Below are positions 8,943-57,961 of a DNA stretch of 64,000 nt, one piece after another. Below the pieces are notes generated by a model. The model made no database searches, was not told the DNA's origin, and worked only from the letters and a program-made list of their open reading frames with translations. The DNA comes from a virus. Every line of letters begins with the position of its first letter. Positions within the stretch are counted from its first letter, which is position 1. The DNA lies in IMG/VR virus record IMGVR_UViG_3300017917_003893, positions 1 through 64,000 of that record, one strand, 5' to 3'. A program made the position numbers and the translations under genes.

Positions 8943-9707
8943 ATGAAACTTGTTAAATATTTTGAATTCAATAAAAAAGATTTAGAACCTATTAAGTCTT
9001 TCTATCTTAAAGATGAATTGAATCCTAAGTTATGGAATGATTTTAACCTAGACAATGAGGTAAGAACTCAACTACTTACTATAGCTCAAGATTTTTACGA
9101 AAATATAGATTTTTCGGCTGACGTTGTTGATATAGTACTTGCTGGATCTTTGTGTAATTATAACTGGTCTGAAAAGTACTCTGATTATGACTTACATATT
9201 ATTATTAATTTTGATGATGTTGATGAAAACTATGATTTAGTTGAAAAGGCATGTGATTATGCTAAGAAAGTTTGGAATTCTCAACACGATATTAAGATTA
9301 AGAGTTATGAGGTTGAAATAGCGATTCAAGATAATGACGACTTAGATGAAGCTATAAAAGGTGGAAGAATGGGTGGTGTTTTTTCATTATTAAATGATAA
9401 ATGGATTAAAAGACCAGAGAGAGCTGATTTTGAACCTGATGAAAAACTAATATCTGAAAAAGCTAAAACTATAATGATGCAAGTTGACGATATTGAAGAA
9501 GAATCAGATGAAGATAAGTATGAGGCATTTGAATCTAAAATATCAAAAGTTTGGAAGAAAATAAAAGACTATAGACAAAGTGGTCTTGATAGTGAGAGTG
9601 GTGAATACTCTATAGGTAATTTAGTATTCAAGTTATTAAGAAGAAATGGTTACATTGGTAAAATAATGGAACTTAAAAGAAAAGTTTACGATAATCAATT
9701 TAAATAA
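8943..9707 (+). CDS. Pol-beta superfamily nucleotidyltransferase
   Basis: LAGSLCNYNW...SDYDLHI (GS..DxD) with a third acidic residue in YEVEIAIQD. ATG 8943 is preferred over GTG 8916. Confidence 0.75.
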   Translation: MKLVKYFEFNKKDLEPIKSFYLKDELNPKLWNDFNLDNEVRTQLLTIAQDFYENIDFSADVVDIVLAGSLCNYNWSEKYSDYDLHIIINFDDVDENYDLVEKACDYAKKVWNSQHDIKIKSYEVEIAIQDNDDLDEAIKGGRMGGVFSLLNDKWIKRPERADFEPDEKLISEKAKTIMMQVDDIEEESDEDKYEAFESKISKVWKKIKDYRQSGLDSESGEYSIGNLVFKLLRRNGYIGKIMELKRKVYDNQFK

Positions 9708-9708
9708 T

Positions 9709-10404
9709 ATGGAGATTAAAATATCAGAAATAGAACAAGTATTCAAGGATGTATTTGAAGAAGAAGAGGGTGTTGTTAACTCTGTTGATACTGTTTATGA
9801 AATGTCAGATGATGAAAAATTTTATAAATTAGTTATATCAATACATGGTTTATCTACACAAGATACCTCTATTATACACACTAAATTTATATTCAAGACA
9901 GACTTAGATAAGAGAAATTTAATTGAAGATACATTCATATATTTATATGATATAAATTGTATTTATCATAAAATAGAGTTTTCAAATATAGTTGATTTGA
10001 AGAAAAAGATAGAAGATATAATAGAGTCTAGAAACTTTGGTGAGGATTTACAAATACTTTCAGACTTCATTGAAGCACCTGCAATGTTCTTAAATTACTA
10101 TATGAGAAGAGATAATATCACAGACTATTCAATTTTTGATGTTGAGTACGAACCAAAGTTTAAAACTACTCCTTGTGATAAAACTACTTTTGATTTTAAA
10201 ATAAACATTAATAATAATTACGATATGGAACTATCTGTTTATAAAGTAGATAGAGTTGATCCAGAAGAGTTAGATACATATAAGTTTCAATTTAAATTTA
10301 TGGATGAAATAGAAACATTTGAATCTGATACAATTAAAAACGTTCACTTCTTTATTGGAGACCATATAGCTAAGATTCTTGATAAAAAATTAAAGAATAA
10401 GTAA
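9709..10404 (+). CDS. Hypothetical protein
   Basis: 231-aa ORF tightly coupled to both neighbours. Confidence 0.75.
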   Translation: MEIKISEIEQVFKDVFEEEEGVVNSVDTVYEMSDDEKFYKLVISIHGLSTQDTSIIHTKFIFKTDLDKRNLIEDTFIYLYDINCIYHKIEFSNIVDLKKKIEDIIESRNFGEDLQILSDFIEAPAMFLNYYMRRDNITDYSIFDVEYEPKFKTTPCDKTTFDFKININNNYDMELSVYKVDRVDPEELDTYKFQFKFMDEIETFESDTIKNVHFFIGDHIAKILDKKLKNK

Positions 10405-11069
10405 TGAGATTAAGGTATTTTGAGAATTTTGTTAATCATATAAACGAATCTAATGAAGATTTTACTGATTTATCTAAAGAAGAGTTAGATGAGTTACTTA
10501 TTCCTATTGTCGACTTAGGTATCGAGTATTCTTTTACTACACCGAGAGTTATTACGGATGGTGAGTTTTCTGGTTATAAATCAATGAATATACAATTTAA
10601 AAACACCTTTCAAATAGGACCAGCGGGTGGATATACTGAACAAATTATTGATGAGAAATTCTGGGATTTCTTAGACGAGTTAATAGCTCTTAAAAACCGT
10701 TTAGAAAGCACTAGAGTTTCTATTAATACTAACTGGAGACATTACATAATTGTTACTTTTATACAAAAAGCTAAAGTTGAAGGTGATTTATTTACAATAC
10801 AAAAGTTGTATAATGATATGGATTTAAGAACTAATGCTTCAAAGAGTGATTTTACAAATAATATGACTAAGACTTTAGATAAAGAAAATTTAAAAATTAC
10901 TGTTAGATGTGGTGGTACTTTTGATACAGCCTCTTATACTGATAGAAAGTGGAATGGTCTTTTCAGAGGTATAGATTTTTCTAAATTTAATGTAGAAAAA
11001 GAAATTACTGAAGATAGATTTGGTGATAAAACAGCTGTTATTACAATTACTTTGAAAAGTGAATCTTAA
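10404..11069 (+). CDS. Hypothetical protein with shared N-terminal motif (MRLRYFENF..INE)
   Basis: 221-aa ORF with a TAATG stop/start overlap. Confidence 0.75.
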   Translation: MRLRYFENFVNHINESNEDFTDLSKEELDELLIPIVDLGIEYSFTTPRVITDGEFSGYKSMNIQFKNTFQIGPAGGYTEQIIDEKFWDFLDELIALKNRLESTRVSINTNWRHYIIVTFIQKAKVEGDLFTIQKLYNDMDLRTNASKSDFTNNMTKTLDKENLKITVRCGGTFDTASYTDRKWNGLFRGIDFSKFNVEKEITEDRFGDKTAVITITLKSES

Positions 11070-11107
11070 TATTTAATATATAAAATTGATAAAAATAACA
11101 TAATAGA

Positions 11108-12562
11108 ATGTCTAATATATCATTAAAACAAGTACCTGCTTCTTCAGTTCCAACACCTGCTGCTAACTATGTTAGAATATTTAGCAATATAGGAGATGGT
11201 GGTAACTTGTATTTTAAAAATAGTTCAGGTTCTATAGAAACATTAGGTGGATCAACTTATGTTCCTGTTACTGAGGTTACATATACTGAGTTATATAACT
11301 TATATACAACTTCCTCATTTGTACCAGGTGCTTATTATCTAATAACAAATTTTGAATCAATATATAAACAACCAGATTTTTACTTAGATGGACTAATTAA
11401 GCCAAATTTAGTGACTAGAGGTAAGCCACCTGGATGGGGATATCAACCAATTTTAGTTATGGCTATATCTACTACAGCTCTTGCTGTAGATGCTTATCAA
11501 CCAAATATATCAGGTGGTGGTTATTCTGGATTTCATAAGGATAAAATTAAATATGATTTTTTATCTAATCAAACAGAATTTGGTGATTTTACTAAAGGTA
11601 GAATTATAGAAAGAATAGATGAGTTTGGTAATAGAACTGATTATGACCATAGAACAATATTGTTTAAAAGATATCAAAACTATGAAAGAGATACCTCATT
11701 AACAGGTACTATAACTGATTATAATTGTGTTACAGGTGTTGTTACTGGAAATAGTACCTTATTTTCAACTGAGTTATCAATTGGAGATATAATAATTTTA
11801 GATTCTAAAGCTGACTTGGGTTATGATATTGGTTTAAAGGTTAAAACAATTGTTAGTAATACTTCTATGACTGTTGAAGTTGATAGTGCCTATACCGGTG
11901 GTGTTCCAAGTGCTGTTTCATTAACAAACTCAACGACTATAACGCCTATTTCATATACATTTACATTTAAGTCTTTTGATTTTTGGATAGCTTCAGCTAC
12001 TGGTGAATTTAATCAATACAAAGAAGTTTATTTTGGTCAAAGTGATGATAGTGATTATGATGAATATTATACTTTTGCTTCAAATTCTTATGATAATAAA
12101 TTTTCAGAATATTCTTATAATTATTTTATTTCTCATGTTAATACACTAATATTAGCTAATAATGTCTTCATTAATGCTTCTAATAATAATAGGTTTGATG
12201 CTGTTTCTGCTAATAATACATTGTATAGCGCATATGGTAATTTATCAAATCATACCTTTTTTGGAAATGTGTCTTCTGGTGAATTCAATAATAATTTAAT
12301 AAACTCACCTTTTTATAATAATAAAATTGGTAGTGCTATTAATAATACATTCTTTGCTGATTTTATTAATAATTCACTAAATACTTCTTTGTATTTTAGA
12401 TTTAATAACTTTAAGTGTAATGTTAATAACACTAATTTTGTAACAGCTACACATGTTTATTTACCATATAACTGTGATGTATTTAAGAATTCGTTAGCTG
12501 ATGTGAAGTTATCTTATTATAATAATTCAAATTCTTTAACAGTTGATAATATCACTGCATAA
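11108..12562 (+). CDS. Putative virion fibre/spike protein with Asn-rich beta-helix-like C-terminus
   Basis: VTYTEL..L....FVPGAYYLIT motif, Thr/Ser/Gly-rich middle, repeated NN-x-F units; TAATATATA at 11074. Confidence 0.55.
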   Translation: MSNISLKQVPASSVPTPAANYVRIFSNIGDGGNLYFKNSSGSIETLGGSTYVPVTEVTYTELYNLYTTSSFVPGAYYLITNFESIYKQPDFYLDGLIKPNLVTRGKPPGWGYQPILVMAISTTALAVDAYQPNISGGGYSGFHKDKIKYDFLSNQTEFGDFTKGRIIERIDEFGNRTDYDHRTILFKRYQNYERDTSLTGTITDYNCVTGVVTGNSTLFSTELSIGDIIILDSKADLGYDIGLKVKTIVSNTSMTVEVDSAYTGGVPSAVSLTNSTTITPISYTFTFKSFDFWIASATGEFNQYKEVYFGQSDDSDYDEYYTFASNSYDNKFSEYSYNYFISHVNTLILANNVFINASNNNRFDAVSANNTLYSAYGNLSNHTFFGNVSSGEFNNNLINSPFYNNKIGSAINNTFFADFINNSLNTSLYFRFNNFKCNVNNTNFVTATHVYLPYNCDVFKNSLADVKLSYYNNSNSLTVDNITA

Positions 12563-12821
12563 AGTTAATTATAGTTTCTAAATTTTCTTTATTAAATTCA
12601 CCATTTAAAGGTTTTCCACCAGATTTTAGATATTGGTTGTATAATTCATTATACTCATCTATAGTATAAAATTTATTATCTAGTTCTGATAATATAATAT
12701 TTGTATCGTGAAAGTCTACAGTTTTGTTTTGTAGTCTTGTTTCACCGTATGCTGGACCTATAGGTCCTACTAACTCAGTACCTGATACTTCTTCGTTAAA
12801 TTGTTTGAATGATTTTATCAC
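12552..12821 (-). CDS. Small hypothetical protein with shared N-terminal motif (MIKSFKQFNEE)
   Basis: 89-aa ORF with an ATGA overlap to the upstream gene. Confidence 0.7.
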   Translation of the reverse strand: MIKSFKQFNEEVSGTELVGPIGPAYGETRLQNKTVDFHDTNIILSELDNKFYTIDEYNELYNQYLKSGGKPLNGEFNKENLETIINFMQ

Positions 12822-13273
12822 TTTTCTTTTTCTAATTTTTCAAAATATTCATCTTGTTCTTCAAGTGAATATTCATTTCTCTTAGTGTTATATATTAAAT
12901 TATAAAGGAACTTATCATGTAGTTTATGATGCTCATCGTGTACCATTGTTACAGTACAGGTTTCTTCTTCAAAATTGTTTTCAATTTTGATTATTTCCAT
13001 TCCAAATTTTCCATTCTTATCATGTAAATTACATATAACTTTTATTCTTTTTTCTAAAAGTTCTAAAATCTTTGAAAACGTGGAGTTTTTTGACAAATAA
13101 AGAAAGTCTTTCATTTCTTCTTTTTGAGTTGAGTTGTACAACTCTAAGAAACTTTGCTCTCTTTTGGTAAGTTGTTTCTTTCTAGAAACTTTATCCATTA
13201 TTCTTTTTACTTCCATTTGTTTAACAGATTCGTTGAATAGATAATACTTTATAAATCTTTCAATTTTCTTCAT
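12818..13273 (-). CDS. Hypothetical protein (MKKIERFIKYYLFNES...)
   Basis: Start at 13273 chosen because TAATATATA sits at 13305-13297 on the minus strand and the longer ORF overlaps the divergent gene. Confidence 0.65.
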   Translation of the reverse strand: MKKIERFIKYYLFNESVKQMEVKRIMDKVSRKKQLTKREQSFLELYNSTQKEEMKDFLYLSKNSTFSKILELLEKRIKVICNLHDKNGKFGMEIIKIENNFEEETCTVTMVHDEHHKLHDKFLYNLIYNTKRNEYSLEEQDEYFEKLEKEK

Positions 13274-18628: not shown

Positions 18629-21600
18629 ATGTATTTAAGAAAGGTGATATATTTGTTGGTGATACACCAAGTTGAATAACATCTCTTACTAGGTTTAATT
18701 TGTTATTTACCAAATCTATCTTATATAGTAGAGGAGTATCTGGTATTAGAGTTGATATAGGCGGTGGTGATTGTGGTTTTCTAAAGTAAATATAAAGATT
18801 ATCAAATACTGTATTGCCCATAGTTTTATCGTTTCCTATTGATATTATAGAGTCTGCTGTATATAAAGGATTACCTGATAATATAGGGAATTCAGTATAA
18901 TAACTTCCACCAGGAACTTGTTTAATTATGTAAGGATCTGCAATATTAGAATCCCAGTTACCACTTAGGTATATTGTTCTAGTTCTTTGATAGTCATTTA
19001 TTCCATTCTCTGTTATTTCAACTAAAACACTGTTAAATCCACTTACACAAATAGCATATATTTTATTTTCTATGTATAGAAGAGATGTAACAGCATAAAC
19101 ATCTGTACTTCCTTGAGTAGATGAGAATGTTATGTTTCCTATTACTGGATTTGTATTAGGTGAATCTAATAACTCGGTTATCTGAGTGTTTTGTATAATA
19201 CCATATGCATTTGTTGACAAATCAATTGAGTATATTCTACCGCCACCCCAAGATACTAATACTTCATTTGCATTTGTTTTTCTTTTTGGTGCTATAGCCA
19301 TTGACTTGTAAGAAGAACCTGCATATGAACTAAATTGAGTTGTTGGTGAATTAAATCTCCAGTATGAGTAAGTTGATGTATTTATTGACATTGATAAATT
19401 ATCTGTTATATTATATCTATAAATTGTATTGAATGGTACATTAGGTGGAATTGAAGAGTTTCTATAAGATGTAGCAAATAAATAAGCCTCATTTATTCCA
19501 AGTCTTCTACTAAACACAAATTGTTGTGTAGGTAAATTACCGTTTGTTGCTATACTGAAGTCTGTCTTAATATTTGTTATATTATATGTAGCAAAATTAT
19601 CATAAACATTAGTATTATTGCCCAGTCTTGTTGTAGATACAATAGTTTGATTTCCTAATAGATTCAACGTTGGTACTTCTGGTATAACAATATCAAATGA
19701 TTGTGTTGCTACTCCTGTACTTGTGGTAGCTGATACTAGTACACTGTGAGTTCCGTATTCTAAGCTATCATTTGTATAAATTCCATAGTTAAATGTTATT
19801 TTACCATTCTGACTATTTATACTAATAGCAGTTGCTGATGACATTGTATAACCATTATATGAAACTTGTAATATACTAAATGATGGTGTTAATCCATAAG
19901 TGCTTATTAATGGTGTAGATGATGTTCCTGGTCCAAACATTTGATTTACAAAAGATGGTGAGTATACAAAATTACTAGGTGCTGGTGGATTTGGTGGTGG
20001 TGGAGCCGGTGCCAATACAGGTTTAATTGGTTCAAATGGTCCAATTAAGTCTACATATTCAGTAGGTTCTGTTAGATCTTTGGTTCCTCTAATTTCATAG
20101 TTTTTCTTGTCTCTATAAATTAAGCCATATCCGTTATCAGATGTTACTTCAATAACAATGAATGGATCTATATTGGAATCTATTGTAAAATTAAAAGGTA
20201 ATATAGGATTTGGTGGTGGTAACAAAGTACCAATTGTACTAGGAGTTACACCTTTTGGAATTCTTCTATACTCTTTAAGTGTTTGTACAGGTTCCCAATT
20301 AATTTCTTTCCATTCAGTTATCTTTAACCAGTTTTGAGTATCTAATAAAGGTGGTGTAGAACTAGTAGCAGATGCTGTTGATCCTAATCCACTATAAACA
20401 AAAATATCTTTCTTATATTCTACAGTATTTGTTACTGAGTATAAAGAATTTTCAACCCAAGTAGGAGTATTTTCATACTTTCTAGGATTTTTAATTTTGT
20501 TATTATTTATTTTAGACTCATATATTTTTCCGTAATATGAAACTTTATCACCAATATTGTATGTTTTAAATGGTGCCCATTCTTTGTAAGTTTTGTATGT
20601 TCTTACTGTTATATCAAAATAGTCTGGTAATTCTATACTAACTCCATTATATGGCTTTGGTGGTTCTACTAATCCAGTTGGATTTTTATCAGCACCTACA
20701 CCTGGATTTATTGTATAAAAGTCAATTACACAGTTATAAACAGTTGAACCACTATTTATAGGCATTAGGTAAGCTTCATTCAACTTGAATGATATAGGTG
20801 TCATATTTTGTTTTATATTAACAATTTGAGTATCATATGATGTGTGAATTATCTGATTCACTTGTTTAAAATATGCCTTACCTGTTATGTCTAATATTTT
20901 ATGTGTTAATGGTATTATATTTCTCTTTAGCCAATATTTAAGACCTTGTAGCTTTATTATAATTTCATCTATAGAATAAGTTATAACGTTATTTCCTTCC
21001 TTGTCAGTTATGTTGTATGTTAGATTAAACATATTAGTTTCTTCATAATCATCATTAGGAAAGTTGTTTTTAACAAATTCACTTTCAGTCCATCCTTCTA
21101 CAGTATTGTCAAATATATCAGGTATTTCAATTTTGAATAATTTCAAGAATTTTTCTGACTGAGGATTTATATTTCTATAATATTCGTTTAATTGTAAATC
21201 ATTATATCCAAAGAAGTTTATGGCATTTATAATTGATTTATATGAACCAATATATGGGTATATAAGATGCTTCATCATTAACATCTCTTTTCTTTTCTTA
21301 TTTAAGAAAGTCCAATCAATTCCACCCTCTAAGATATCATAATCTTTGAATATAAATACTTCATTTGGTGCTACTAATTTACCAACATTACCTAATTCAA
21401 TTTTAAATCTTATGTCTTCTATTTCAGTTTGACCGTAGGTTATAAATCTTCCTATTTCTTTATCTATAACTTTTATGTCAAATTTACAATATGTATTTTT
21501 ACCGGATGATGGATAGTTTAATATTACTGTTTCTTCTAAGAATAAAAAGTCATTTTCTGCTAAAAAGTCAACTACTAAACTCTTAAAGAATACATTTCTA

Positions 21601-26186: not shown

Positions 26187-26558
26187 ATGAAAATAAATAA
26201 CTTTGAAGATTTTATAAATGAAGAGTTCTTCAAGAGAATTTTTAATAATTCCAAGAAAAAAAACAATGTTATTGTTAACAGAGTTGATTCTTGCGTTGAA
26301 AACATATTAAATTTTCTATCAGAGAATGATGTTTATAATTGGAGTGGATTTATAAAAATGTCTCCTTTTGATAGAAGTGTTATTGATAAACTAATAGATA
26401 GTGAGGTTATAACAATGAAGGAGTTAGAAGAAGTTAGATTCAAGTTAAAGTTAGAACTAATGGATAAATCACAATTAATTGATTTTAAAAGTGAATTAGA
26501 ATCGGAAGAAGAGTATGAAAAATGCGCTCTAATTCTTAAAAAAATAAATCAAAAATAA
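26187..26558 (+). CDS. Hypothetical protein with shared N-terminal motif and C-terminal UVR-like helix (EEYEKCALI)
   Basis: 123-aa ORF 4 nt after TAATATATA. Confidence 0.7.
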   Translation: MKINNFEDFINEEFFKRIFNNSKKKNNVIVNRVDSCVENILNFLSENDVYNWSGFIKMSPFDRSVIDKLIDSEVITMKELEEVRFKLKLELMDKSQLIDFKSELESEEEYEKCALILKKINQK

Positions 26559-26568: not shown

Positions 26569-27708
26569 ATGAAACACATTAAAAAATTTAATGAAACAAA
26601 AAAAGAAGAAAAGGTTAAAGACCAAGAAGTTCTTTTTACTGTTGATAATCTAATAGATGATAACGAACCATCTATTAAAACTCAATCTGAGGAAGATAAC
26701 GAAAAAGTTCAGAAAGAGTTTAAAAAGTCAATGGATAAAGTTGAAAAGTTTGAGGCTTTTATTGATGTTCATATAGATAATATTGAGAATGTTGAAGTTG
26801 ATTATGACTTTGATGAAGAAGATGAAGAGTTAGATGCCGATTATGAAGAAGATCCTGGTTGTGGTTGTTGTGATGATTGTCAAAGTGAGCCAGGGTGTAA
26901 CTGTGGTTGTGAAGATTGTAAATGTTCAGATATGACCGAAGAGCCAAGCTTAATGTCTGCTTCTGATTTTGTTTCTAATTTATTTTCAGAAAGTCTTAAA
27001 TATCATTTAGATAATAATAAACCTATTACTGAAAATATATTCAGACCTGGTTCAGAAGCTTTTTATCAAGTAATTAAAGAAGCAAGGCAAATGTTTGATT
27101 TAGGTAAAGTTACCCTATGTGATATTGATAGAGATATTTTTGAATCAACTGAGATTGGTAATTTTGCTATGTTCAAAGGTGAATTAGTTCCTTTAGACTT
27201 ACCAATGGAAACTATAGTTGAGACAAATCAGCCAGCATTTTCTATACACGATGTTACTCCTGATTTTAATTATGATGTTATGGGTAAAACAGTTACAAAT
27301 ATTAAACCTTTAACTTGGGTTAAAAACGGTGAAGCATCTTGTATGTCTTTTGAAGGCGAAGTTGATGGACAGACTTGTATGTGTAAATATGATGATGGTC
27401 AAGATGGTTATGTGTTTGAGGCTAAATATCATGGAAAAGAAGTTAAACTAAACTACCCTATGAGAGGTGGTACTAAAAAGTACTATGTTTATGTTAAGTC
27501 AGCAAAGGGTAATGTTAAAAAGATTTCATTTGGTGATGTTCACGGTGGATTAACAGCTAAGGTTAGTGATCCTAAAGCTAGAAAGTCATTTGCTGCTAGA
27601 CATCAATGCCATTTGAAAAAAGATAAAACTAAAGCAGGTTACTGGGCTTGTAGAATTAACAAGTATGGTCATTTGTGGGGTGGAAAAACTTATCCTGGAT
27701 ACTGGTAA
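26569..27708 (+). CDS. Multidomain hypothetical protein: N-terminal motif, acidic/Cys-rich segment, basic C-terminal domain
   Basis: MKHIKKFNE start; CGCCDDC...CNCGCEDCKC; C-terminal KKISFGD...RKSFAARHQC...AGYWAC. Confidence 0.75.
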   Translation: MKHIKKFNETKKEEKVKDQEVLFTVDNLIDDNEPSIKTQSEEDNEKVQKEFKKSMDKVEKFEAFIDVHIDNIENVEVDYDFDEEDEELDADYEEDPGCGCCDDCQSEPGCNCGCEDCKCSDMTEEPSLMSASDFVSNLFSESLKYHLDNNKPITENIFRPGSEAFYQVIKEARQMFDLGKVTLCDIDRDIFESTEIGNFAMFKGELVPLDLPMETIVETNQPAFSIHDVTPDFNYDVMGKTVTNIKPLTWVKNGEASCMSFEGEVDGQTCMCKYDDGQDGYVFEAKYHGKEVKLNYPMRGGTKKYYVYVKSAKGNVKKISFGDVHGGLTAKVSDPKARKSFAARHQCHLKKDKTKAGYWACRINKYGHLWGGKTYPGYW

Positions 27709-27710: not shown

Positions 27711-28127
27711 ATGAAACACTTAAAAACATATCAAATATTTGAATCTGTTAATAAAATGTTTGTTAAAGACTTTTTAACAGATTTTGGTACACTTATATCT
27801 CTTAATTTTAGTCAAATAACTAAAATGGGTAAAGATGTTGATGCTACAAAAGAATTAACTCTTATGATGCAACAACTTAGAAAGCCTATAATAAACGGTC
27901 AAAACTATTTTGATTTTCTTAAAGATAATATAAATATTGTTCCTAATAATCCAAAGTTACTCTCTACACTTCTAGGTGTGGTAAGAGATTATCTAATCTA
28001 TATAGAACCGAGAGTTCAAAAATTTGTAACTGATGAACCAGCATCAAATGGTGTTGATTATAAAGAGGCTTGGTTAAAAAGAATTGAAAAAATTAAAAAT
28101 GACTATAAACTAATAGTAAGTCAATAA
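27711..28127 (+). CDS. Hypothetical protein with shared N-terminal motif (MKHLKTYQIFES)
   Basis: ATG 27711 lies 2 nt after the upstream stop codon. Confidence 0.7.
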   Translation: MKHLKTYQIFESVNKMFVKDFLTDFGTLISLNFSQITKMGKDVDATKELTLMMQQLRKPIINGQNYFDFLKDNINIVPNNPKLLSTLLGVVRDYLIYIEPRVQKFVTDEPASNGVDYKEAWLKRIEKIKNDYKLIVSQ

Positions 28128-36027: not shown

Positions 36028-36582
36028 CTATTTTGATGAGTTACTTGCTATTTTCTTTATGTTATCCATCATATTTTTTTCTATATCTATCATTTTCTTT
36101 TTCAGTGATGATTCAGCATCTGATATTTCTTTTGATAAAGATGCTATTTCAGCTGTTTTAGTTGATATTCTATTAGTTATATCAGTTATTTTAGCACCAA
36201 CTGCTTGTTTAATGCTACTTTCTTTTGATAAACTTAATTCTTGTGTAAAGTCGTCTTTTTTAAGTTTATCTGTAGTTATATCTTTTTGAGTCTTATCAAC
36301 TTTCCTTTTAAGATTAGCAACATGTAAGTAGTCAACTAAAAAGGGATTTCTATCAGTTCCTGCTTTTCCAACTATCTGATCTACTTTAGCTTGTAAATCA
36401 GCATCTGTGCTTGATTTTAGATAAGCATTATCAATTAGTGGCTTTTTAGTATTAAAGTCCACAATTTGTTTTTTTAACTTAGATAACTCTTCTTTAGCCG
36501 TCCTTATATCAGGACTGTCAGTAGATTGAACGTCAAACTCAGCTTCTTCTAAGAAGAGTTTATATGACTTAATATGACCCAT
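36028..36582 (-). CDS. Coiled-coil protein with shared N-terminal motif (MGHIKSYKLFLEE)
   Basis: 184-aa ORF with a TAATG overlap. Confidence 0.7.
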   Translation of the reverse strand: MGHIKSYKLFLEEAEFDVQSTDSPDIRTAKEELSKLKKQIVDFNTKKPLIDNAYLKSSTDADLQAKVDQIVGKAGTDRNPFLVDYLHVANLKRKVDKTQKDITTDKLKKDDFTQELSLSKESSIKQAVGAKITDITNRISTKTAEIASLSKEISDAESSLKKKMIDIEKNMMDNIKKIASNSSK

Positions 36583-39374
36583 TACTGTTTTTTCATTTCT
36601 GTTTTAGTTATACCGTCAGTTGATGATATTTTTGGAAATCCTCCAATATTATTTATTTGATTTGATATATCTTTATTTAAAACAAACCTAGTTTTACCAG
36701 ATGTAGTTTCAACATCTTTGGTATTTTGATATAAAGTATAACAGCTTTGTATATTAACAACTTCTGGTTTTTCAGATAACGTAGCTTTTGTATTCACATT
36801 ATTTGATTTACCATCATGTTTTGTTAGATGTGTTATGTCATATCCACCACTTAATTTGAATACACCGTCTTTTCCTATTAGATTTTCTATCTTCTTTTTT
36901 GTTGCTTTCAATCTAAAGTCACTTGCTTTCTCAGTTCCCTCTCCTGATAATCTATCTTTATTTAATCTGGGTAAATCTCCTTTTTCAAGTTTATTTGATA
37001 CACCTGATTGACTAATATACTTTTCAAAGAAATAGAAAGTTCTTGAGTATACTATGTATGCTGTATCACCTACTACATCTTGTATGAAGAAGTAGTATAC
37101 TTTACCATCTTTTGTAAGTGCTGAAAAGAAAGTTTTTTTCAAATTATCATTTGATTCAAACTTTATAGGATCTTTTGTGAAAAGTAAATCAACTGTTTTT
37201 ATACTATTGGCATTGCCACTAATTTCTTCAGCTTCTTTTTCACCACCAAATGTTGTATCTTGTGATATTTTATTAGGATCTGATTCTGTATAGCCAAAAT
37301 ATTTATCTAAGAATTTTGCTTGTTGTCCCTTGTCATCTTTGCCTGTTTTATATAGTTCATCACCATCTAGCATATCTGACATAAATTTTCTAAGATTAGA
37401 TCCGGCTTTTTCTATTAGCTCATCACCAACTTTTATTTTAGTTCCAACATTAAAAATAGGTTGATACTTTTTTTCTTTCATTATATCAAGAACTGTATTT
37501 TCCCATTGATTGAATATAGCATTATTTCTATAAGGACCACCTCCTGAACCAGCATTTGCTGGTGTTCCACCTCCAAAAGAGGTATATTCCATAAATGTTT
37601 TATTTGATACTTTACCGCCTGATCTACCAGAAGGTATTACTTGAGTTGTGTGTATTTTATATGCTCTATTAAAACATTTAACTACATCTAATACAGGATC
37701 CATTCCGTTTATTACAATAGAATCTTTCTTTTCTTTCTCAAGTTTATCAAACTTTTCTTTCATTTTAATAACTTCTGTTTTCTCCATAACAAAAGCTTTA
37801 ATATCTATTTTTTTCTTCCAATAGTCTTTAATCTTTTGTGATGTAGTCATAACATCAGGTGCTCCTACTTCATCACTTTTTTCTTTATCTTCTTCAGCTT
37901 CTTTTACTAATTTAATAAAGTTATTATATCTAAACAAAGACGATTCTTTTTTAGCTACAGTGTCAACTTCTTTTTGAGTCTCTTCTTTTTTAGGCTCACT
38001 AGGAACCATTCGCATTATTTGCTTAATAGATTCAACAAAATCTTGTAAAGGTTTAGTTAAGTCACCTAAACCACCGTATAATCCTTCTTTATCAAATTGT
38101 AAAGCTCTTTTAGAAAATCTAGCTATTTTTTCTGCAACTATAATTCTTTTGTTTTTATCAGATATAATCTCAAGACTCTCTTTATATAAAGGATCTTTCT
38201 CTTGTATTGTAGATTTTTTATCTCCAACTAAATATCTGTTTATTTCTGTATAAAGAGATTTTATTTGATTTTTGGCATTTGTATCTACAGACTTAGAAGT
38301 TATGTCATTTATAAAAGCAACATCAACACCTATTCCTTTTTCTTTAGATGATATTAATACTTCAATATCTCTTTTTAATTTTGAAAAAGCTTGAGTAAGA
38401 TGGTCTTCACCAGACTTTATATTTCCTCTATCTTGAGACCCACCAGGTTGATTAGTAGTACCAGGTACTGCTTCAAATATTGAAGATTCCATAACAAGTG
38501 CTAAGCCTGCTGGTAAAGTTTGGTTGTCTTTCGGATATTTTTGAAGTATTTTAGAATTTTTTGTTCTAATATCAGCTAAAGACATTTTTTTCTTATTTAT
38601 ATTTACATCTTTCTGTATTTTTTCAATCGTATCACCTTCTTTAGTTTTATAAGGCTCAATAGATGATGATTTAGCAACTGGTGTAGATGATTGGATTTTA
38701 ACTCTTTTATAAGCGTCTAATATAATACCTAATGATTTTAGGTTTTTAATCATAACTGGATAAAGAGATTCTGATGTTTTCCCTGATTCGGATCCTTTTT
38801 CAGATCCTTCTTCGGATCCTTCTTTGCCTTCACCTTCCTCTTTATCTTTGTCGGCCTCAGATTTACCACCCTCATCATCTTTGAATTGTTCTAAGAACTT
38901 TAGAAATTCTTCTAGTTGACTTATTAAATTTTCCTTATTTTCAAAATCTTCAAAATTCTTAATATCATTTATAGCCGCTCTTGTAAGATTTTTTATCTCA
39001 CCAACATTTGCTCCTTCTTCAACCGCCTTCTGTAAACTATCAATAAATGAGAATACTATAAGTCTTCTATATTCTTTTCTATCCTCTTCTGATAACTCAG
39101 CAGCAGTTGATGTTCCTAATAGTTCGTCAAAGGTGTCTCTTAATCTTCTAGCGACTCCTTTAATTCTAACTAAGTTGGCGCCTATTTTGGCTTTTCTTAT
39201 TGTAGAGTTTATTAATCTTCCTAGTAAAGAATCACCCCAAGGTATATCATTTGCAAATGGACCACTATTTTCAACGTCTTCATTTATTGAATACAAATCA
39301 TCGTATTTTTTGTACTCGTCTATTTTACTGATACTTCTTTTAAGGAATTCTTCTCTGTTATTAAGGTATTTCAT
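36582..39374 (-). CDS. Large Lys/Glu-rich protein with LysM-like segment, putative virion internal protein
   Basis: About 930 aa; YKTKEGDTIEKI...N...LPAGLAL; TAATATATA at 39406-39398. Confidence 0.65.
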   Translation of the reverse strand: MKYLNNREEFLKRSISKIDEYKKYDDLYSINEDVENSGPFANDIPWGDSLLGRLINSTIRKAKIGANLVRIKGVARRLRDTFDELLGTSTAAELSEEDRKEYRRLIVFSFIDSLQKAVEEGANVGEIKNLTRAAINDIKNFEDFENKENLISQLEEFLKFLEQFKDDEGGKSEADKDKEEGEGKEGSEEGSEKGSESGKTSESLYPVMIKNLKSLGIILDAYKRVKIQSSTPVAKSSSIEPYKTKEGDTIEKIQKDVNINKKKMSLADIRTKNSKILQKYPKDNQTLPAGLALVMESSIFEAVPGTTNQPGGSQDRGNIKSGEDHLTQAFSKLKRDIEVLISSKEKGIGVDVAFINDITSKSVDTNAKNQIKSLYTEINRYLVGDKKSTIQEKDPLYKESLEIISDKNKRIIVAEKIARFSKRALQFDKEGLYGGLGDLTKPLQDFVESIKQIMRMVPSEPKKEETQKEVDTVAKKESSLFRYNNFIKLVKEAEEDKEKSDEVGAPDVMTTSQKIKDYWKKKIDIKAFVMEKTEVIKMKEKFDKLEKEKKDSIVINGMDPVLDVVKCFNRAYKIHTTQVIPSGRSGGKVSNKTFMEYTSFGGGTPANAGSGGGPYRNNAIFNQWENTVLDIMKEKKYQPIFNVGTKIKVGDELIEKAGSNLRKFMSDMLDGDELYKTGKDDKGQQAKFLDKYFGYTESDPNKISQDTTFGGEKEAEEISGNANSIKTVDLLFTKDPIKFESNDNLKKTFFSALTKDGKVYYFFIQDVVGDTAYIVYSRTFYFFEKYISQSGVSNKLEKGDLPRLNKDRLSGEGTEKASDFRLKATKKKIENLIGKDGVFKLSGGYDITHLTKHDGKSNNVNTKATLSEKPEVVNIQSCYTLYQNTKDVETTSGKTRFVLNKDISNQINNIGGFPKISSTDGITKTEMKKQ

Positions 39375-41039: not shown

Positions 41040-41321
41040 ATGGAACAATTAAAAACAGTTTGTAGAAACCCTTGGTGTAAAGCCACTTTCTTTTATAAAG
41101 AAGAAGACATGGTTGTTTTATCACAAGATATTAGAAAAAATAATATTGATGCTGTTTTAGATGAGGTTCAAAAAGTTCCACCAACAGTTTGTCCAAAGTG
41201 TAAAAGTTTTGATACAGAGCTTAGTGGTGGTGTTCAGTGGAAAACAAAAGATTACGAAGGTAGTAGGTTTGATGGTTCTCCACATGAAATTAGATATAGA
41301 GTAACAAATTATAAATTATAA
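41040..41321 (+). CDS. Small zinc-ribbon protein
   Basis: CRNPWC...CPKC. Confidence 0.65.
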   Translation: MEQLKTVCRNPWCKATFFYKEEDMVVLSQDIRKNNIDAVLDEVQKVPPTVCPKCKSFDTELSGGVQWKTKDYEGSRFDGSPHEIRYRVTNYKL

Positions 41322-42166
41322 TGAAAGCACATTTTTTTGATATAGATTCTATTTTAGAAGTTAATGCTAAGGTTTGGATTGTTGATAAAACTATTCCTAA
41401 TATACCTATTATGAAGATATCTCAGTCTGATTTTAATTTAATCAAAAATGGTATCTATAGAAGTCAAGGCAATTCTATTAGTTTCAGTGGACACAACTAT
41501 TGGTTACCAACTGATTTGTTTGAAAAGTTAAAGATAAAATCAAAAAATCATAGAACTGATATTTCTAACTTGTCTTTTTCTATGCAAGAGTTTATGAACA
41601 AAGAGTTAATTGAAAACTTAGACTATGATATAAACTTTGATAATATATCACATCTTAAAAATACTGATGATGATATTTATGTTATATGTTCAAAGAATAC
41701 TAAAAGAAACTACGAACTTATGATATCTAAGATAGAAGATAAACTAAAAGATAATGGTTTATCTATCAAAAAGTATTATTATATATCAGAAACATTTTAT
41801 AATAGAAGTGAAGATGATATATCACATAAAAAAGTGAGACTATTGTTACAACATCTTATAGGCTATAAAACAGAGTTAGATAAGTTTATAGATGAAAAAA
41901 TAGAAAAGTATGACGAGTTATATTTCTATGATGATGAAATATCATCTATTAAGTTATCTATTGATTGTAATAAGTTATTAATGTATTTACTTTCTAATAC
42001 AGATTCTTCTATAAAAGATATAATAAAACAAGATATAAAACAAAGTGAGCCTTTATTAGTTGTTAATCAAATAACTGGAAATAAAGTTAATAGATTTATA
42101 TCGACAGATGTTAAAATTCAATTTAGCAATCTTATAAAAGTTTTTGAAAGTTTTAAGTGGAAGTAA
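41321..42166 (+). CDS. HAD-like hypothetical protein
   Basis: HFFDID N-terminal DxD motif and LYFYDD motif IV-like segment. Confidence 0.5.
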   Translation: MKAHFFDIDSILEVNAKVWIVDKTIPNIPIMKISQSDFNLIKNGIYRSQGNSISFSGHNYWLPTDLFEKLKIKSKNHRTDISNLSFSMQEFMNKELIENLDYDINFDNISHLKNTDDDIYVICSKNTKRNYELMISKIEDKLKDNGLSIKKYYYISETFYNRSEDDISHKKVRLLLQHLIGYKTELDKFIDEKIEKYDELYFYDDEISSIKLSIDCNKLLMYLLSNTDSSIKDIIKQDIKQSEPLLVVNQITGNKVNRFISTDVKIQFSNLIKVFESFKWK

Positions 42167-46895: not shown

Positions 46896-47504
46896 ATGAA
46901 GCATATTAGAACATTTGAATCATATCGTGTTAAGAAAAACAGAGAAGAGATAATTAAAGAATCTGTTCTTCAGGTAAACGATATCTACAAAGTAAAGACT
47001 ATGATTGATATTCCTCAGTCATTGATTAACGCTTATGTTAAAAAAGTAAAAGACACAACTGGTAAAAACTTACGTCAATTTTTTGGTGATGTTGACATCG
47101 CTGAAGAAATTGTTAAGTATATCAATATGAATAATCTTGATGTTGAAAAGATTCCTGGTGGTGCTTTAATGGGTGGTGGTCAATCACAGGCTCAAACACA
47201 ACCTCAAGCTCAGCCTCAAGTTCAAGTTGAAGGTGAGACTCAAGCTCAAACACAAGCTCAAACACAAGAAGCTCCTCAAGCTCAACCTCAAGCTCAAACA
47301 CAAGAAGCTCCTCAAGCTCAGGCTCAAACACAAGAAGCTCCTCAAGGAGAATTTGAAGAACCACAAGCTCAAGCTCAAACACAAGAAGCTCCTCAAGCTC
47401 AAGGACAAGCTCAAACACAAGAAGCTCCACAAGCACAAGGTCAAGGTCAGGCTCAAGAAGAGGAAGAAGAAACTGAAGAAGGAGAAGAAGAATTACCGCT
47501 TTAA
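46896..47504 (+). CDS. Gln/Ala/Glu-repeat protein with shared N-terminal motif (MKHIRTFES), putative prohead core/internal protein
   Basis: 202 aa; QAQTQEAP repeats and an acidic C-terminus. Confidence 0.75.
   Translation: MKHIRTFESYRVKKNREEIIKESVLQVNDIYKVKTMIDIPQSLINAYVKKVKDTTGKNLRQFFGDVDIAEEIVKYINMNNLDVEKIPGGALMGGGQSQAQTQPQAQPQVQVEGETQAQTQAQTQEAPQAQPQAQTQEAPQAQAQTQEAPQGEFEEPQAQAQTQEAPQAQGQAQTQEAPQAQGQGQAQEEEEETEEGEEELPL
47181..47460 (+). repeat. Imperfect tandem coding repeat (CAAGCTCAAACACAAGAAGCTCCT; QAQTQEAP, about 5 copies)
   Basis: Directly visible in the sequence. Confidence 0.9.
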
Positions 47505-47574: not shown

Positions 47575-48186
47575 ATGAGATTCCTTAAAACGTTTGAAAG
47601 TTATGGTAATGAAACATTAATTATTGTTGATGTTCAAAAGTCATTCAAGAAATTCTTTTCGGAAATGTATTTGAATGAGTTGAAAAAGTATTGTAATAAC
47701 TTCCAAAGTGTTTACCAAATATGGGATAACCATATCGATGGTAAAAAAGTGGATAAAGATTATCTATATGATAATACACCAGAGATTCCAATTCATGATG
47801 ACCTTTATCATTTTCCTAATCAAAAAGACTTGATTGAGAAGAGATATAACTATGATGTTGATGCTGATTTTTATAAAAAGATATTAAGTAAAGAAGTTTA
47901 TAAAGAAATTAGTGATAAGGAAGATAAAAAAGAACTTAAAAAAGGCGATATTTTCTCTACTAAAGAAGGTACAATAATAACTTACATTGGTAATAACCAC
48001 GTTTGGTTTCACGTTCCTATCAAATTGTATGAACTATTACAATCATTAAAAGGTAAAGAAGTTACAATAGTTGGTGGTGCTGACTCTGAATGTCTTGAAG
48101 ATATAGTAACAACCGCTGAGAAATTAGGTGTTAAAATTAAAAGAGATTATAAATATATTTATACTGCTAGTAGTTGTCCAATTTAA
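47575..48186 (+). CDS. Isochorismatase/nicotinamidase-fold cysteine hydrolase
   Basis: LIIVDVQ, IEK, IVGGA..EC pattern; N-terminus MRFLKTFES. Confidence 0.6.
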   Translation: MRFLKTFESYGNETLIIVDVQKSFKKFFSEMYLNELKKYCNNFQSVYQIWDNHIDGKKVDKDYLYDNTPEIPIHDDLYHFPNQKDLIEKRYNYDVDADFYKKILSKEVYKEISDKEDKKELKKGDIFSTKEGTIITYIGNNHVWFHVPIKLYELLQSLKGKEVTIVGGADSECLEDIVTTAEKLGVKIKRDYKYIYTASSCPI

Positions 48187-48680
48187 CCTTCATCAGGCAT
48201 ATCAAAACAAATTCTTAAAACATCTCCGTCAAATCCAATTGAACATTGTTCAAAATTAGAAAAAACTTGAAACCTTGGAACAATTTCTTCTTGGAGTAAT
48301 TTAAATATTTTCTTAATTTTATTATTATTAGCCATAATAATATCTAAATTGTTTCTTAACTTTTCTAGATTTTCAATCTGATTATCAACTGAATAGTTTA
48401 ATGAAGTATAATATGATTCTATATTTTCTGGACCATCTGTTGGTGGTAAAGCATCTGTTAAATATCTAGCAGTTAAGTATGTTCCTTCTTCATCAATCTC
48501 TTCATCACTTATTTGAGGTATTGTTAATTCGCAGTCATAGAAATAATCTTCATCTGTATAATCATGAAATACACATTGGAAATAATCAGATAATTCCATC
48601 ATAATTTCTTTGAATGTCTCAAAATCACATTCTTCATTTGAAGCCTCATTGAACTTCTTTAGATATACTAACTTTTTCAT
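48183..48680 (-). CDS. Acidic hypothetical protein with shared N-terminal motif (YLKKFNEA)
   Basis: 165-aa ORF with an ATGA overlap. Confidence 0.7.
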   Translation of the reverse strand: MKKLVYLKKFNEASNEECDFETFKEIMMELSDYFQCVFHDYTDEDYFYDCELTIPQISDEEIDEEGTYLTARYLTDALPPTDGPENIESYYTSLNYSVDNQIENLEKLRNNLDIIMANNNKIKKIFKLLQEEIVPRFQVFSNFEQCSIGFDGDVLRICFDMPDEG

Positions 48681-49768
48681 ATATTACTTATAAATTTATA
48701 TAATTTTTTTATATATTCTCTTCTTTTATATTCTGGATTTGTCATACAATAAACAACAAAAGCAAAATATTTAACTTTTTCTATAAGAACCTCTCTTTCA
48801 ATTATACCACCAGCATATCTAAATTCGCAATAGTTATCAGAAAGCTTTGTTATATTAAATCCAAGATTTTTAAATCCTATTTGATTTACCTTCTTTGTTA
48901 AGAAGCTATTTAATACCTCTTCGGATTCTTCAAGATTATTAATATCAAGTCCTTTGATTATATTTTTTTCTTTATCACTCATTTCTTTAAGATATGGTAT
49001 TAATGATCCGCAAAACTTGTTATTCATTCTCCAAGTCATATCTTTGAATGTGTATGGTGTTGAATCTTTATCAGAAAAGTCATTTAATATTAACAATCCT
49101 TTAATTGGATTCCATTTAACCTTTTGATTGGAACCTAGATTTATATGTATTCCAGTTCTTTCTGAAAAGTGCCAGTAATCCTGTTTTTCTAAATCATTGT
49201 AGAAGTCATTTATCATTTCAATAGATTCTGATAAACTAGGTATATAAGTCTTTGGTTTTATTTCAATTCCTCTTTCAAGAGTTGCATCTCCAACAAAGTC
49301 AATCTTTCTATTCCATTTTCTAACAAAATTAGGCATATGTGTTCTTACCATTCTTTTTAGATATGTATAGTCTTCTTCTATAATAACTGATTTTAATGAG
49401 TTTTTCAAATGAGATACTATTTCTATTTGTCTCTCATCTGTATATTTGCTTATGTCAAATATTCTATCAAATGTGTTTTCATTGACATTTTTAGATTCCA
49501 CTTCATCATATAATGAATATGCTAGATTGAATATTAATTCCTTCTCTGATTTCTTTCTAATTTTAAAGTCTTTAGTTACTGTTTCTAAAACATCTTCAAT
49601 AGTTTCTTCATCTAAATCTTTGTATTTATACTTTAGATTACCTTTGTCTAATGTTTCTATTTCAAACTCAAATGCCACTGTAAAGTAGTTATTTAATTCA
49701 GATTCTATGAATGCTATATCTCTTGGGTTAACCTCTTCAAATAGAGAAAATTTTACTAAGTATCTCAT
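48677..49768 (-). CDS. Putative amidoligase (COOH-NH2 ligase fold)
   Basis: FEFEIE, D.TL..GIEI, TGIHIN, EFRY.GG motifs. Confidence 0.65.
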   Translation of the reverse strand: MRYLVKFSLFEEVNPRDIAFIESELNNYFTVAFEFEIETLDKGNLKYKYKDLDEETIEDVLETVTKDFKIRKKSEKELIFNLAYSLYDEVESKNVNENTFDRIFDISKYTDERQIEIVSHLKNSLKSVIIEEDYTYLKRMVRTHMPNFVRKWNRKIDFVGDATLERGIEIKPKTYIPSLSESIEMINDFYNDLEKQDYWHFSERTGIHINLGSNQKVKWNPIKGLLILNDFSDKDSTPYTFKDMTWRMNNKFCGSLIPYLKEMSDKEKNIIKGLDINNLEESEEVLNSFLTKKVNQIGFKNLGFNITKLSDNYCEFRYAGGIIEREVLIEKVKYFAFVVYCMTNPEYKRREYIKKLYKFISNI

Positions 49769-55476: not shown

Positions 55477-55560
55477 ATATGTTGTTTTTTTTTTAATTTT
55501 ATATCATTTACTAAACTTTGTTTATTCGTTTTAATAAAATATTTATCTAAATTTAAAATA

Positions 55561-55860: not shown

Positions 55861-56195
55861 TGTTTTATTTACCCATAATTCTCTTTATTTGGTCAGAGAT
55901 ATACTATGTTTACAATAAGTCTAAATTAGATGTTAGATTTAAAAATAAAGATATTTCAAACTCATCTAAATATGATTTACTCTATTATTTTAGTAGGGTA
56001 TTTTACTACATTTGGTTATCTTTTGGAATTTTTACAAGTCAATCAGATATATTTATCTTTTTATTTATTTTAATACTATTAAAATTACCTTTTTATTTTA
56101 TTAGTAAAAGAGTTTATTTTATATGGAATAATATACTACCTAGTATTTCAGTTATCTTTATGATAATTGCACTTGTTTATTATATTAAAGGTTAA
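55857..56195 (+). CDS. Small multi-pass membrane protein
   Basis: Three to four hydrophobic segments. Confidence 0.6.
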   Translation: MMFYLPIILFIWSEIYYVYNKSKLDVRFKNKDISNSSKYDLLYYFSRVFYYIWLSFGIFTSQSDIFIFLFILILLKLPFYFISKRVYFIWNNILPSISVIFMIIALVYYIKG

Positions 56196-56712
56196 ACTTT
56201 TTTAAGTGATGTTCTGTTATTATGATAAATTCATAACCTTTTCTATTACACCAATTTATCATAGTTTCCCATTTTTGCTTATTCTTATAAGCCATTTTTA
56301 AGTCATATTCAAAGTTTTTTAATTTCTTCATACCCTTTTCTGGTACTTCTAATTTACCTTCATTTAAGTCTTGTACCATTTTGTATTCTTTAAATGGTTT
56401 AACTTCAACTACAACTTGCTTTAAAACACCTTCAGAGTTTCTCATTTCGTAATAGAAATCTGGATAGTAACAGTGTTCTTTTACTTTTGTATCACCATTT
56501 TCAAAATGTGTCATTTGGTAAGGTATTATTAAACATTCCGCGCCCCACTTTGATATACTCTTGTTATTATCTAACCATGTCATTATTTTTCTTTCCCACG
56601 AGCTTCTGTAATATACACCACCTTGTGTATTTAATTTGATTACTTTGTCTTTGTATTTTGGTATATAGTTACCTTGACTATAATTTGCGTTATTTGGTCT
56701 TGAATTTAACAT
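56185..56712 (-). CDS. gp4: Head completion nuclease (T4 gp4/TnsA-like)
   Basis: YRSSWE, WG.E...IPY, YYPDF, VEVKP, NK.KW, F.IITE..L. Confidence 0.85.
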   Translation of the reverse strand: MLNSRPNNANYSQGNYIPKYKDKVIKLNTQGGVYYRSSWERKIMTWLDNNKSISKWGAECLIIPYQMTHFENGDTKVKEHCYYPDFYYEMRNSEGVLKQVVVEVKPFKEYKMVQDLNEGKLEVPEKGMKKLKNFEYDLKMAYKNKQKWETMINWCNRKGYEFIIITEHHLKKFNL

Positions 56713-56757
56713 CTCTGTAGATTTGTTTCTTTTATATATAAAAGAAAATTTATTTCC

Positions 56758-57453
56758 ATGGGAGAATTAGTTGATAGAATTGGATTAAGAATGTTGGTCG
56801 ATGGTAGTGGTTTAGCTGATAACTTTAAAAATAATACACTATATTTTTATGATAAATATCAAAAATCCGATGAGTTAGTTACAGCTATAGGTATAAATGA
56901 CATACTTCCTGGTATGTTTTATCATTTTCACTATTTAGATAGTTCTAATTGGATGCAATACTCTCCAGTTTTTGTAACAAATTATAAAAAAGTTTCTAAT
57001 AAAATAATAATATTCGGTGTTAATTTTAATTTTATTCCTTTGGAAGTTAGAGCCTATTTATTTGATAAGTTTATGATAGAAGAAAACTTTGAAAAAGAGT
57101 TACCTTTAAAAGTTGATTACAAGGGAATGTATGACGAACTTAAAAAGTATGGATTTGAGTATGCTTTAGTTGAATATAACGCTTCTCAGATTAAATTAGT
57201 TCACAGAATTAAAATGGATGTTGTTCCTAGGTTTTTAATATCATCTCATCCAAAAAATAAATATGATCCGGCTAAATTATTTAGCATATGGCAAGTTAAG
57301 ATAAAAGATAGAGATAAAAGAGACCAAGAGATTATGCAATCAACTATTGATGATTTTTTTGATGTTAAGGATCAAATAAATGAGAAGTATGTTTTACTAA
57401 AAGACCATATTAAAAGAATTCAAGCCAATATGAAAAAATATGGAAATAGATAA
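56758..57453 (+). CDS. DNA end protector-like protein (T4 gp2-like)
   Basis: PG.FY.F.Y...SPVF...GVNFNFIP..R; divergent from gp4. Confidence 0.5.
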   Translation: MGELVDRIGLRMLVDGSGLADNFKNNTLYFYDKYQKSDELVTAIGINDILPGMFYHFHYLDSSNWMQYSPVFVTNYKKVSNKIIIFGVNFNFIPLEVRAYLFDKFMIEENFEKELPLKVDYKGMYDELKKYGFEYALVEYNASQIKLVHRIKMDVVPRFLISSHPKNKYDPAKLFSIWQVKIKDRDKRDQEIMQSTIDDFFDVKDQINEKYVLLKDHIKRIQANMKKYGNR

Positions 57454-57487
57454 TAATATATACATTAATAAAAAAACATCATAATAA

Positions 57488-57961
57488 ATGAGACATTTAA
57501 GAAAATTTGAAGAACTTGACTATTCAACATATATGAGTGCTGCTGATAAGATGGCATCTTATGGTCAAACATCTAAAGCTGAAGAGGTTAGAAAACACGC
57601 TCTTTCTATGGCTAGAAGAGTAATTGATGATATGAATTTTGGAATTTTAGTCGGTGGTGTTAGAACTTTTCCTAATGCTAAATTTGAAAATGCTAGAATA
57701 TTTAAATCTGGTAATGCTTGGTCACTTCAAGTAATACTTAAATCTGATGAAAATACACACAGTGTTAACTGTAAAGTTTTAGAGAATGGTGAGATTTCTT
57801 GGGCTGATGGAAATAAGTTTATGGATAGAGGTTCTGTTCTTAAATTTCAACAATTAGTTAAACAACTTGCTAAATTTCAACCAGACTTTTTAGCATTTAT
57901 AAAGGATAATAACTTAACACCTGAAGATCTTAAAGTTGTTTTAAGAACTTTTTATAATTAA
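57488..57961 (+). CDS. Hypothetical protein with shared N-terminal motif (MRHLRKFEE)
   Basis: 157-aa ORF; TAATATATA at 57454. Confidence 0.75.
   Translation: MRHLRKFEELDYSTYMSAADKMASYGQTSKAEEVRKHALSMARRVIDDMNFGILVGGVRTFPNAKFENARIFKSGNAWSLQVILKSDENTHSVNCKVLENGEISWADGNKFMDRGSVLKFQQLVKQLAKFQPDFLAFIKDNNLTPEDLKVVLRTFYN

Follow-up and report, generated by a model that had tools for sequence, protein, structure and literature searches.

A shared N-terminal tag on unrelated proteins of an uncultured huge phage, a putative capsid-targeting signal

Why do 14 unrelated proteins encoded on one stretch of phage DNA begin with much the same short peptide? The stretch is the window of this study, positions 1 to 64,000 of the virus record IMGVR_UViG_3300017917_003893, which form the first 64 kb of a virus contig of 143,336 bp with a GC content of 29.5% and an estimated completeness of about 25%. 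The original prediction for this window had listed 14 such N-termini and interpreted them as an address label for the phage head, comparable with the capsid-targeting sequence (CTS) of phage T4; all 14 translate as written, 6 of them on the minus strand. We found that the peptide, called the tag below, recurs on 33 of 168 genes of the contig (19.6%). Judging from the comparisons reported here, we consider it moderately probable that the tag belongs to a capsid-targeting propeptide system of the T4 type, enlarged here to between a sixth and a fifth of the genes.

The source is an uncultured phage of the 600-kb class. Its sheath, capsid and protease genes have their nearest relatives in uncultured phages of 634-735 kb (LR745206 and LR756501-4), while Lak phages and Tenacibaculum phage PTm1 are more remote. 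The group of LR745206 and LR756501-4 belongs to the “Mahaphage” huge phages, for which Bacteroidetes are the predicted hosts (PMC7162821).

Occurrence and form of the tag

The tag was searched with a profile hidden Markov model (HMM) built from 13 tags of the window, and a gene was called tagged at 6 bits or more unless another threshold is named. The held-out set, 104 genes at positions 64001-143336 of the contig, lies outside the training window. Enrichment over shuffled and AT-biased controls had been named as a check by the original prediction, and the profile bears it out: 18% of the held-out N-termini are tagged, compared with 1-2% of the controls (internal-Met windows 1.4%, shuffled N-termini 1.8%, random internal windows 1.0%). 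A threshold of 10 bits is reached by 10.6% of the held-out N-termini and by 0.1-0.2% of the controls. The complete 634-kb genome LR745206 has 158 tagged genes among 930 (17%; 112 at 10 bits or more). Elsewhere the counts are 3 of 234 for Staphylococcus phage K (30% GC), 6 of 311 for PTm1 (30% GC), 3 of 272 for the first 286 kb of Lak-A1 (26% GC) and 5 of 260 open reading frames (ORFs) for T4. The tag is confined to one subclade.

Aligned on their first aromatic residue, 188 tags give the consensus M-K-[YH]-[LI]-K-[KT]-[FY]-[NEK]-E-F. The tag is 8-13 residues long, and a Glu usually lies within a few residues after the consensus, with a linker of variable sequence behind it. In 116 of 191 tags, position 7 is where the aromatic residue stands; relative to the first aromatic, residue +3 is Phe or Tyr in 60% and residue -3 is Leu or Ile in 85% of the 188, and the hydrophobic residues of the tag are spaced by three. 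Hydrophobic-x-Glu is found in 25 of 33 tags, compared with about 33% of background windows. In LR745206, 76 N-termini have a short core motif, while its internal occurrences (61) equal the shuffle expectation (59). The tag is strictly N-terminal. Internal core motifs were considered as cleavage sites as well, and were rejected because of this internal count.

The signal resides at the protein level. The codons of the tag have a GC3 of 0.179, compared with 0.178 for the gene bodies, synonymous codon usage is equal too, and substitutions within tags are of the kinds K/R, F/Y and I/L. A role of the conserved 5' coding sequence in recombination, as a linker through which cassettes are exchanged, was rejected, since synonymous sites in the tags differ freely.

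The proteins behind the tags are mostly unrelated, as had been claimed: beyond the first 20 residues, BLASTP gives only three pairs. The tag is a modular disordered extension on unrelated folds. For example, a tagged HAD-like protein has 12 extra residues before its DxD motif relative to two untagged paralogues, and a SET-like protein that is tagged in LR756502 has an untagged counterpart on this contig. Orthologues with an overall identity as low as 34-42% still carry the tag, and from phage to phage the tagged proteins change more quickly than the untagged proteins encoded next to them. No common C-terminal motif was found among the tagged proteins; K-[YF]-N-[ILV] stands at the stop codon in just one untagged gene here.

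One tagged family, that of the gene at 47575..48186 (+; 203 aa), was followed through 120 orthologues. This protein consists of the tag MRFLKTFES, a linker and an isochorismatase/nicotinamidase-like hydrolase. K5, F7 and E8 are 93-100% conserved and Glu8 is invariant, while the next four residues are the most variable of the protein (entropy of the linker 1.87 vs 0.49). An invariant Glu with a variable linker behind it fits a cleavage site. The AlphaFold2 model (mean pLDDT 87.6) shows no structure for residues 1-10 (pLDDT 49); its fold begins at residue 12. Foldseek gives weak matches to nicotinamidase/isochorismatase folds (E 5e-3, TM about 0.45), and an Asp/Lys/Cys trio is nearly invariant. 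In distant homologues without the tag the domain begins at residue 4-5, and others have different CTS-like extensions. Anecdotally, six fused homologues have h-N-E-S about 10 residues ahead of the domain.

The tag is also tied to an upstream motif. The original prediction had placed all listed genes in units headed by a TAATATATA-type motif, and this association holds for the whole contig, in which 30 of 33 tagged but only 58 of 135 untagged genes are in such units (p=4e-7). In LR745206, 139 of 158 tagged and 227 of 772 untagged genes are in motif-headed units (p=4e-44), so that these units hold 88-91% of the tagged genes. Genes for the sheath, protease, capsid, portal and terminase have the motif [AT]ATATATA in front of them, and judged by these downstream genes it would be a late promoter. 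Recognised shell and tail genes do not carry the tag, again as predicted (sheath, portal, terminase, protease and capsid protein score 0.8 or less). In about 40 genes of the window and contig, the TAATATATA motif shows two preferred distances to the ATG, 4-5 nt or 19-27 nt, and the shorter spacing implies nearly leaderless transcripts. Some public gene calls translate the TAATATATA motif in frame as ..FNIY.. before the true start.

Comparison with T4 and the head module

The CTS of T4, as well as CTS-like internal proteins of close T4 relatives, is already known, while full-text literature searches found no description of a shared N-terminal tag in huge phages. In T4 the CTS reads MKTYQEFIAE. 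The HMM trained on the window gives it 7.1 bits and aligns KTYQEFIA to the core K-x-[FY]-x-E-F; when the N-termini of the 260 T4 ORFs are ranked, the internal proteins IPIII, IPI (MKTFKEFTS...) and IPII are among the five best. T4's best match to the tag profile is gp61.1 (NC_000866, about 18966-19130, minus strand), a hypothetical protein of 54 aa that starts MKTFKEFIKE and has the full CTS pattern; to our knowledge it is not among the listed internal proteins.

T4 genetics assigned targeting to residues 4 and 7 (Tyr and Phe) and processing to residues 8 and 10 (PMC9026906). The tags resemble this arrangement, with an aromatic-x-x-aromatic pair at the targeting positions, followed in part of them by a candidate [ILF]-x-Glu processing site, and the exact IPIII pattern aromatic-x-x-aromatic-[ILVMF]-x-Glu occurs in 8 genes, compared with 0.2% of internal windows. 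Besides, both are short N-terminal peptides on unrelated, fast-evolving proteins, and the tag is found alongside a protease of the gp21 family and head genes of the gp20/gp23 type. The two systems differ in scale, with 17-20% of genes (about 160 per genome) tagged here but only 3 in T4 (4 with gp61.1). A large subclass of the tags ends [FY]-Glu-Ser and has no hydrophobic P3. The candidate cargo, known here from sequence alone, also differs from that of T4 in being acidic and including enzymes and membrane-like proteins.

The T4-type head module lies at the end of the window and just beyond it. It includes an untagged gp20-like portal gene (58063..59781, +; phrog_213, 3e-59), a gene for a gp21-family prohead protease-scaffold fusion of 714 aa (62725..64869, +, passing the window end at 64000; phrog_207, 6e-33) and a Gp23-family capsid protein gene (contig 64950-66623; PF07068, E 8.6e-29, 101.5 bits vs a cut-off of 24.4). 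Ahead of the Gp23 domain, which begins at residue 84, there is an N-terminal piece that resembles the propeptide in T4. By tblastn, the protease domain is 33-37% identical to annotated g21 of T4-like cyanophages (E down to 2e-17), while with Pfam PF03420 it reaches 20-23 bits, under the cut-off of 27 bits, and phmmer against solved structures gave only chance matches. Against the T4 ORFs, phmmer aligns GEFDH73 with GELNH85 and VS128SR with VS140SR, and His73 and Ser128 are invariant in 21 homologues; His85 and Ser140 are the catalytic residues of T4 gp21 (PMC12991175). The family has more than 4,700 homologues in public metagenomes, on contigs of up to 816 kb. Tagged genes stand around the module at 57488, 66703 and 68533, the latter two positions being conserved in LR745206.

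The scaffold part follows the protease domain and consists of about 10 repeats of 14 residues (YSEY[IL]AENLDKNI), an acidic segment with repeated Cys-Gly-Pro and a conserved C-terminal domain. Its likeness to T4 gp21 and gp22 includes the conserved catalytic His and Ser, a scaffold rich in [IL]-x-Glu and an [IL]-x-Glu site at residue 8 of the protease that resembles LIE-9 of gp21, while the difference is that one polypeptide here combines these parts with the repeats and the acidic Cys-containing segment. The density of [LI]-x-Glu in the fused scaffold is the maximum of the proteome (4.5 per 100 residues vs a mean of 1.4), and the repeat region reaches 6.4. The T4 protease gp21 cleaves behind the Glu of I/LxE, and more weakly at xxE (PMC12991175); given this specificity and the density of sites, the scaffold looks built for shredding by a Glu-specific protease. 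The tags appear to offer the same kind of Glu site, and the fusion protein is likely the reader and cutter of the tag, as far as its similarity to gp21 indicates. The tag HMM does not match the scaffold repeats, and the likeness of EY[IL]AE to T4 EFIAE was seen by eye only.

In phiKZ-like phages the propeptides are long and have the cleavage motif S/A/G-x-Glu. We know of no common N-terminal motif among them, so a short tag would not reveal the cargo of phiKZ-like phages. The general scheme is similar: the phiKZ-like giant phage SPN3US packs tens of MDa of diverse proteins, with loading that depends on propeptides, and a gp21-related prohead protease (gp175/gp245 processing) trims its inner-body and ejection proteins after Glu (PMC5694885, PMC7411985). 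Capacity would be no obstacle to loading, because one copy each of the tagged LR745206 proteins amounts to 3.7 MDa, while the T4 head takes up about 1000 molecules of internal proteins beside 170 kb of DNA and SPN3US holds more than 40 MDa of ejection proteins (PMC7411985).

Put together, a capsid-targeting system could work as follows. Late in infection, tagged proteins would be made together with the head proteins, the common upstream motif providing the co-regulation, and the flexible tag would dock them onto a prohead core formed by the gp21-like protease-scaffold fusion. The protease would then cleave behind Glu, taking off the tag and breaking up the repeats of the scaffold, as homology to T4 gp21 and the site statistics suggest, and the mature proteins would remain in the capsid with the DNA and could enter the next host. 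The cargo would be about 33 proteins on the 143-kb fragment and about 160 in the complete 634-kb relative, mostly of no known family, with NUDIX, Acb1-like, RNA-ligase, cyclase, NFACT-R and nicotinamidase-like enzymes as recognisable candidates.

Competing readings of the tag

AT-rich codon bias could in principle yield such peptides by chance and without function, as the genome has 29.5% GC and the tag residues Lys, Phe, Asn, Glu, Ile and Tyr have AT-rich codons. This account is refuted and deserves practically no credence: the tag is 10 to 100 times as frequent as in shuffled and internal controls taken from these proteins, base composition fails as an explanation because phage K, PTm1 and Lak-A1 are at background (1-2%) at 26-30% GC, and the tag is retained in orthologues of 34-42% identity. 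The conserved start might instead act in mRNA or translation of late genes, e.g. as a 5' coding enhancer for leaderless or short-leader transcripts in hosts that do not use Shine-Dalgarno pairing. The promoter-like motif just 4-5 nt 5' of the ATG in several genes speaks for such a role, as does the somewhat lower frequency of synonymous differences between orthologues within the tag (28% vs 42% of identical residues). However, codon usage and GC3 of the tag are those of the gene bodies, its variation is conservative in amino acids with register shifts in frame, it occurs equally on genes with 4-5 nt spacing, with a 20-27 nt leader and inside operons, and many late genes, including all structural ones, lack it; we therefore regard a translation-level feature as very improbable.

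The alternative with more weight, which we still judge unlikely, is an N-terminal sorting or handling signal of late proteins that is read by something other than the prohead. For instance, the tag may belong to a different assembly made late, be recognised by a phage chaperone or by a protease that sets the timing of activity or turnover, or act as a localisation signal, and the likeness to the T4 CTS would then be a common amphipathic-helix pattern only. Several observations favour this alternative and likewise weigh against a capsid address. Membrane-like segments are present in 4 of 33 tagged proteins, and the tagged gene at contig 129074-129772 (-) encodes a signal-peptide-like stretch after the tag (LRSAVLGAGLAASLFANSPNVNAQ), a soluble region and a C-terminal PQ-loop domain with three membrane-like segments, which makes it an odd candidate for capsid cargo. 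The tagged set is net acidic (-3.8 per 100 aa), while T4 internal proteins are highly basic, and the tagged GH108, M15 peptidase, Toprim and DNA polymerase B exonuclease proteins of LR745206 may have roles in the cytoplasm or in lysis. PTm1 and Lak-A1 have related gp21/gp23-type head genes with the tag at background frequency, so the head module alone does not predict the tag, and the virion proteomics of PTm1 cannot serve as a test of the idea. We know of no precedent for about 160 different cargo species in one phage, which also counts for a reader outside the prohead. The match to T4 itself has limits: the full T4 pattern is present in only 8 genes, 8 of 33 tags, those of the KTFES class, have only x-[FY]-Glu and no hydrophobic P3, and the tags carry an extra M-K-[YH]-[LI] prefix, with the T4 CTS scoring only about 7 bits. 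While the comparison with the T4 CTS made in the original prediction is supported computationally, the packaging, cleavage after Glu and injection that it added are all steps that we infer. On the other side, no alternative reader has been identified, the retrieval of three T4 internal proteins together with the match to the T4 targeting and processing positions would have to be coincidence, and an invariant Glu followed by a variable linker suits a cleavage site.

Should the tag prove to be a capsid address, metagenomes would allow one to predict which proteins uncultured megaphages package and probably inject, about 160 per genome and mostly of no known family, and candidates for first-strike anti-defence and host takeover could be shortlisted. 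Part of the additional coding capacity found in the largest phages would be accounted for. The T4 CTS, so far a feature of a few internal proteins, would be seen to scale to a genome-wide sorting system, and foreign proteins might be loaded into very large capsids by means of a small natural tag. As a tentative extension, the largest known phages, a Bacteroidota-associated clade of 460-735 kb, may load at least about 150 proteins, roughly one sixth of their genes, by one N-terminal address. Such a set, including anti-defence-like, RNA-repair and nucleotide-signalling enzymes, might be a ready-made early proteome for the next host that can be listed from the genome.

Tagged genes of the window and further observations

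Generally, tagged proteins have no Pfam or PHROG family. For 150 tagged proteins of LR745206, only 21 Pfam families were found, among them NUDIX (two proteins), the poly(A) polymerase head domain, T4-type RNA ligase, 2'-5' RNA ligase, nucleotide cyclase, NFACT-R and Acb1-like.

In the window, the first tagged gene is 8943..9707 (+; 254 aa, MKLVKYFEF; 19.2 bits), which belongs to phrog_36119 of unknown function and whose LR745206 orthologue is tagged as well (MKLNKFYEF). The gene at 10404..11069 (+; 221 aa) starts with MRLRYFENFVNHINES, and its orthologue is only 34% identical yet tagged, with MKHLTQFFDYIKES. On the minus strand, 12818..13273 (151 aa) carries the tag MKKIERFIKYYLFNES and has TAATATATA 23 nt upstream, while 12552..12821 (89 aa) has a GTG start, (V/M)IKSFKQFNEE, with orthologues of 65-71% identity. 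The latter is a conserved gene, the LR745206 orthologue of which has an ATG start (MIKKFYQFINE).

Three tagged genes follow one another on the plus strand. The first, 26187..26558 (123 aa, MKINNFEDFINEE), has the complete pattern of T4 IPIII, and 26569..27708 (379 aa, MKHIKKFNET) and 27711..28127 (138 aa, MKHLKTYQIFES) are operon-internal. The complete T4 pattern is also present in MGHIKSYKLFLEE of 36028..36582 (-; 184 aa), with tagged orthologues of 42% identity. The neighbouring gene at 36582..39374 (-) encodes 930 aa and has the variant MKYLNNREEF without an aromatic residue at position 7, for which the orthologues have MKYLSKRSEY and MRYLKQREEF.

The hydrolase gene described above is preceded by 46896..47504 (+; 202 aa, MKHIRTFES), which encodes an acidic C-terminal tail and matches a single-strand DNA-binding PHROG weakly. 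It is followed by two tagged genes on the minus strand. The product of 48183..48680 (165 aa) begins with MKKLVYLKKFNEA and that of its orthologue with MIYLKKFNES. The gene at 48677..49768 (363 aa, MRYLVKFSLFEE) has a tagged orthologue in LR756502, while in the LR745206 orthologue the tag is lost and a stop codon lies just upstream. The last one, 57488..57961 (+; 157 aa, MRHLRKFEE), is directly 5' of the portal gene.

The original prediction had also pointed to two tag-like peptides at C-termini. Both are present, but only that of the untagged gene at 41321..42166 (+; 281 aa), NLIKVFESFKWK, is kept in orthologues, both of which have it (HLKKTFESFIYKRY and NLIKAFESFKFGK). This peptide may be the signal in a C-terminal form; T4 Alt and gp21 undergo C-terminal processing too (PMC9026906).

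Some observations concern the contig beyond the window. At 123115-123501 (+), the longest ORF starts 14 codons before an in-frame MKYINLFEEF, and translation probably begins at the third Met. Simple ORF calling therefore misses some tagged genes, and several similar cases exist in LR745206. The genes at 67127-68533 (+) and 84122-85222 (+) encode paralogous peptidase-like proteins (phrog_4191; HLDT...GADDK motifs). The capsid-adjacent copy, 67127-68533, has a 140-residue N-terminal extension starting MDKLLRYNQIFEAG, and its LR745206 orthologue has no tag-like start.

Besides, many small untagged proteins share a second common peptide near the stop codon, roughly R-x-x-K-[IL]-x-x-[IL]-[LF]. Its carriers include, among others, the contig genes at 72497-72715, 86312-86803, 132934-133098, 133091-133420, 134288-134548, 136440-136811 and 136828-137205.

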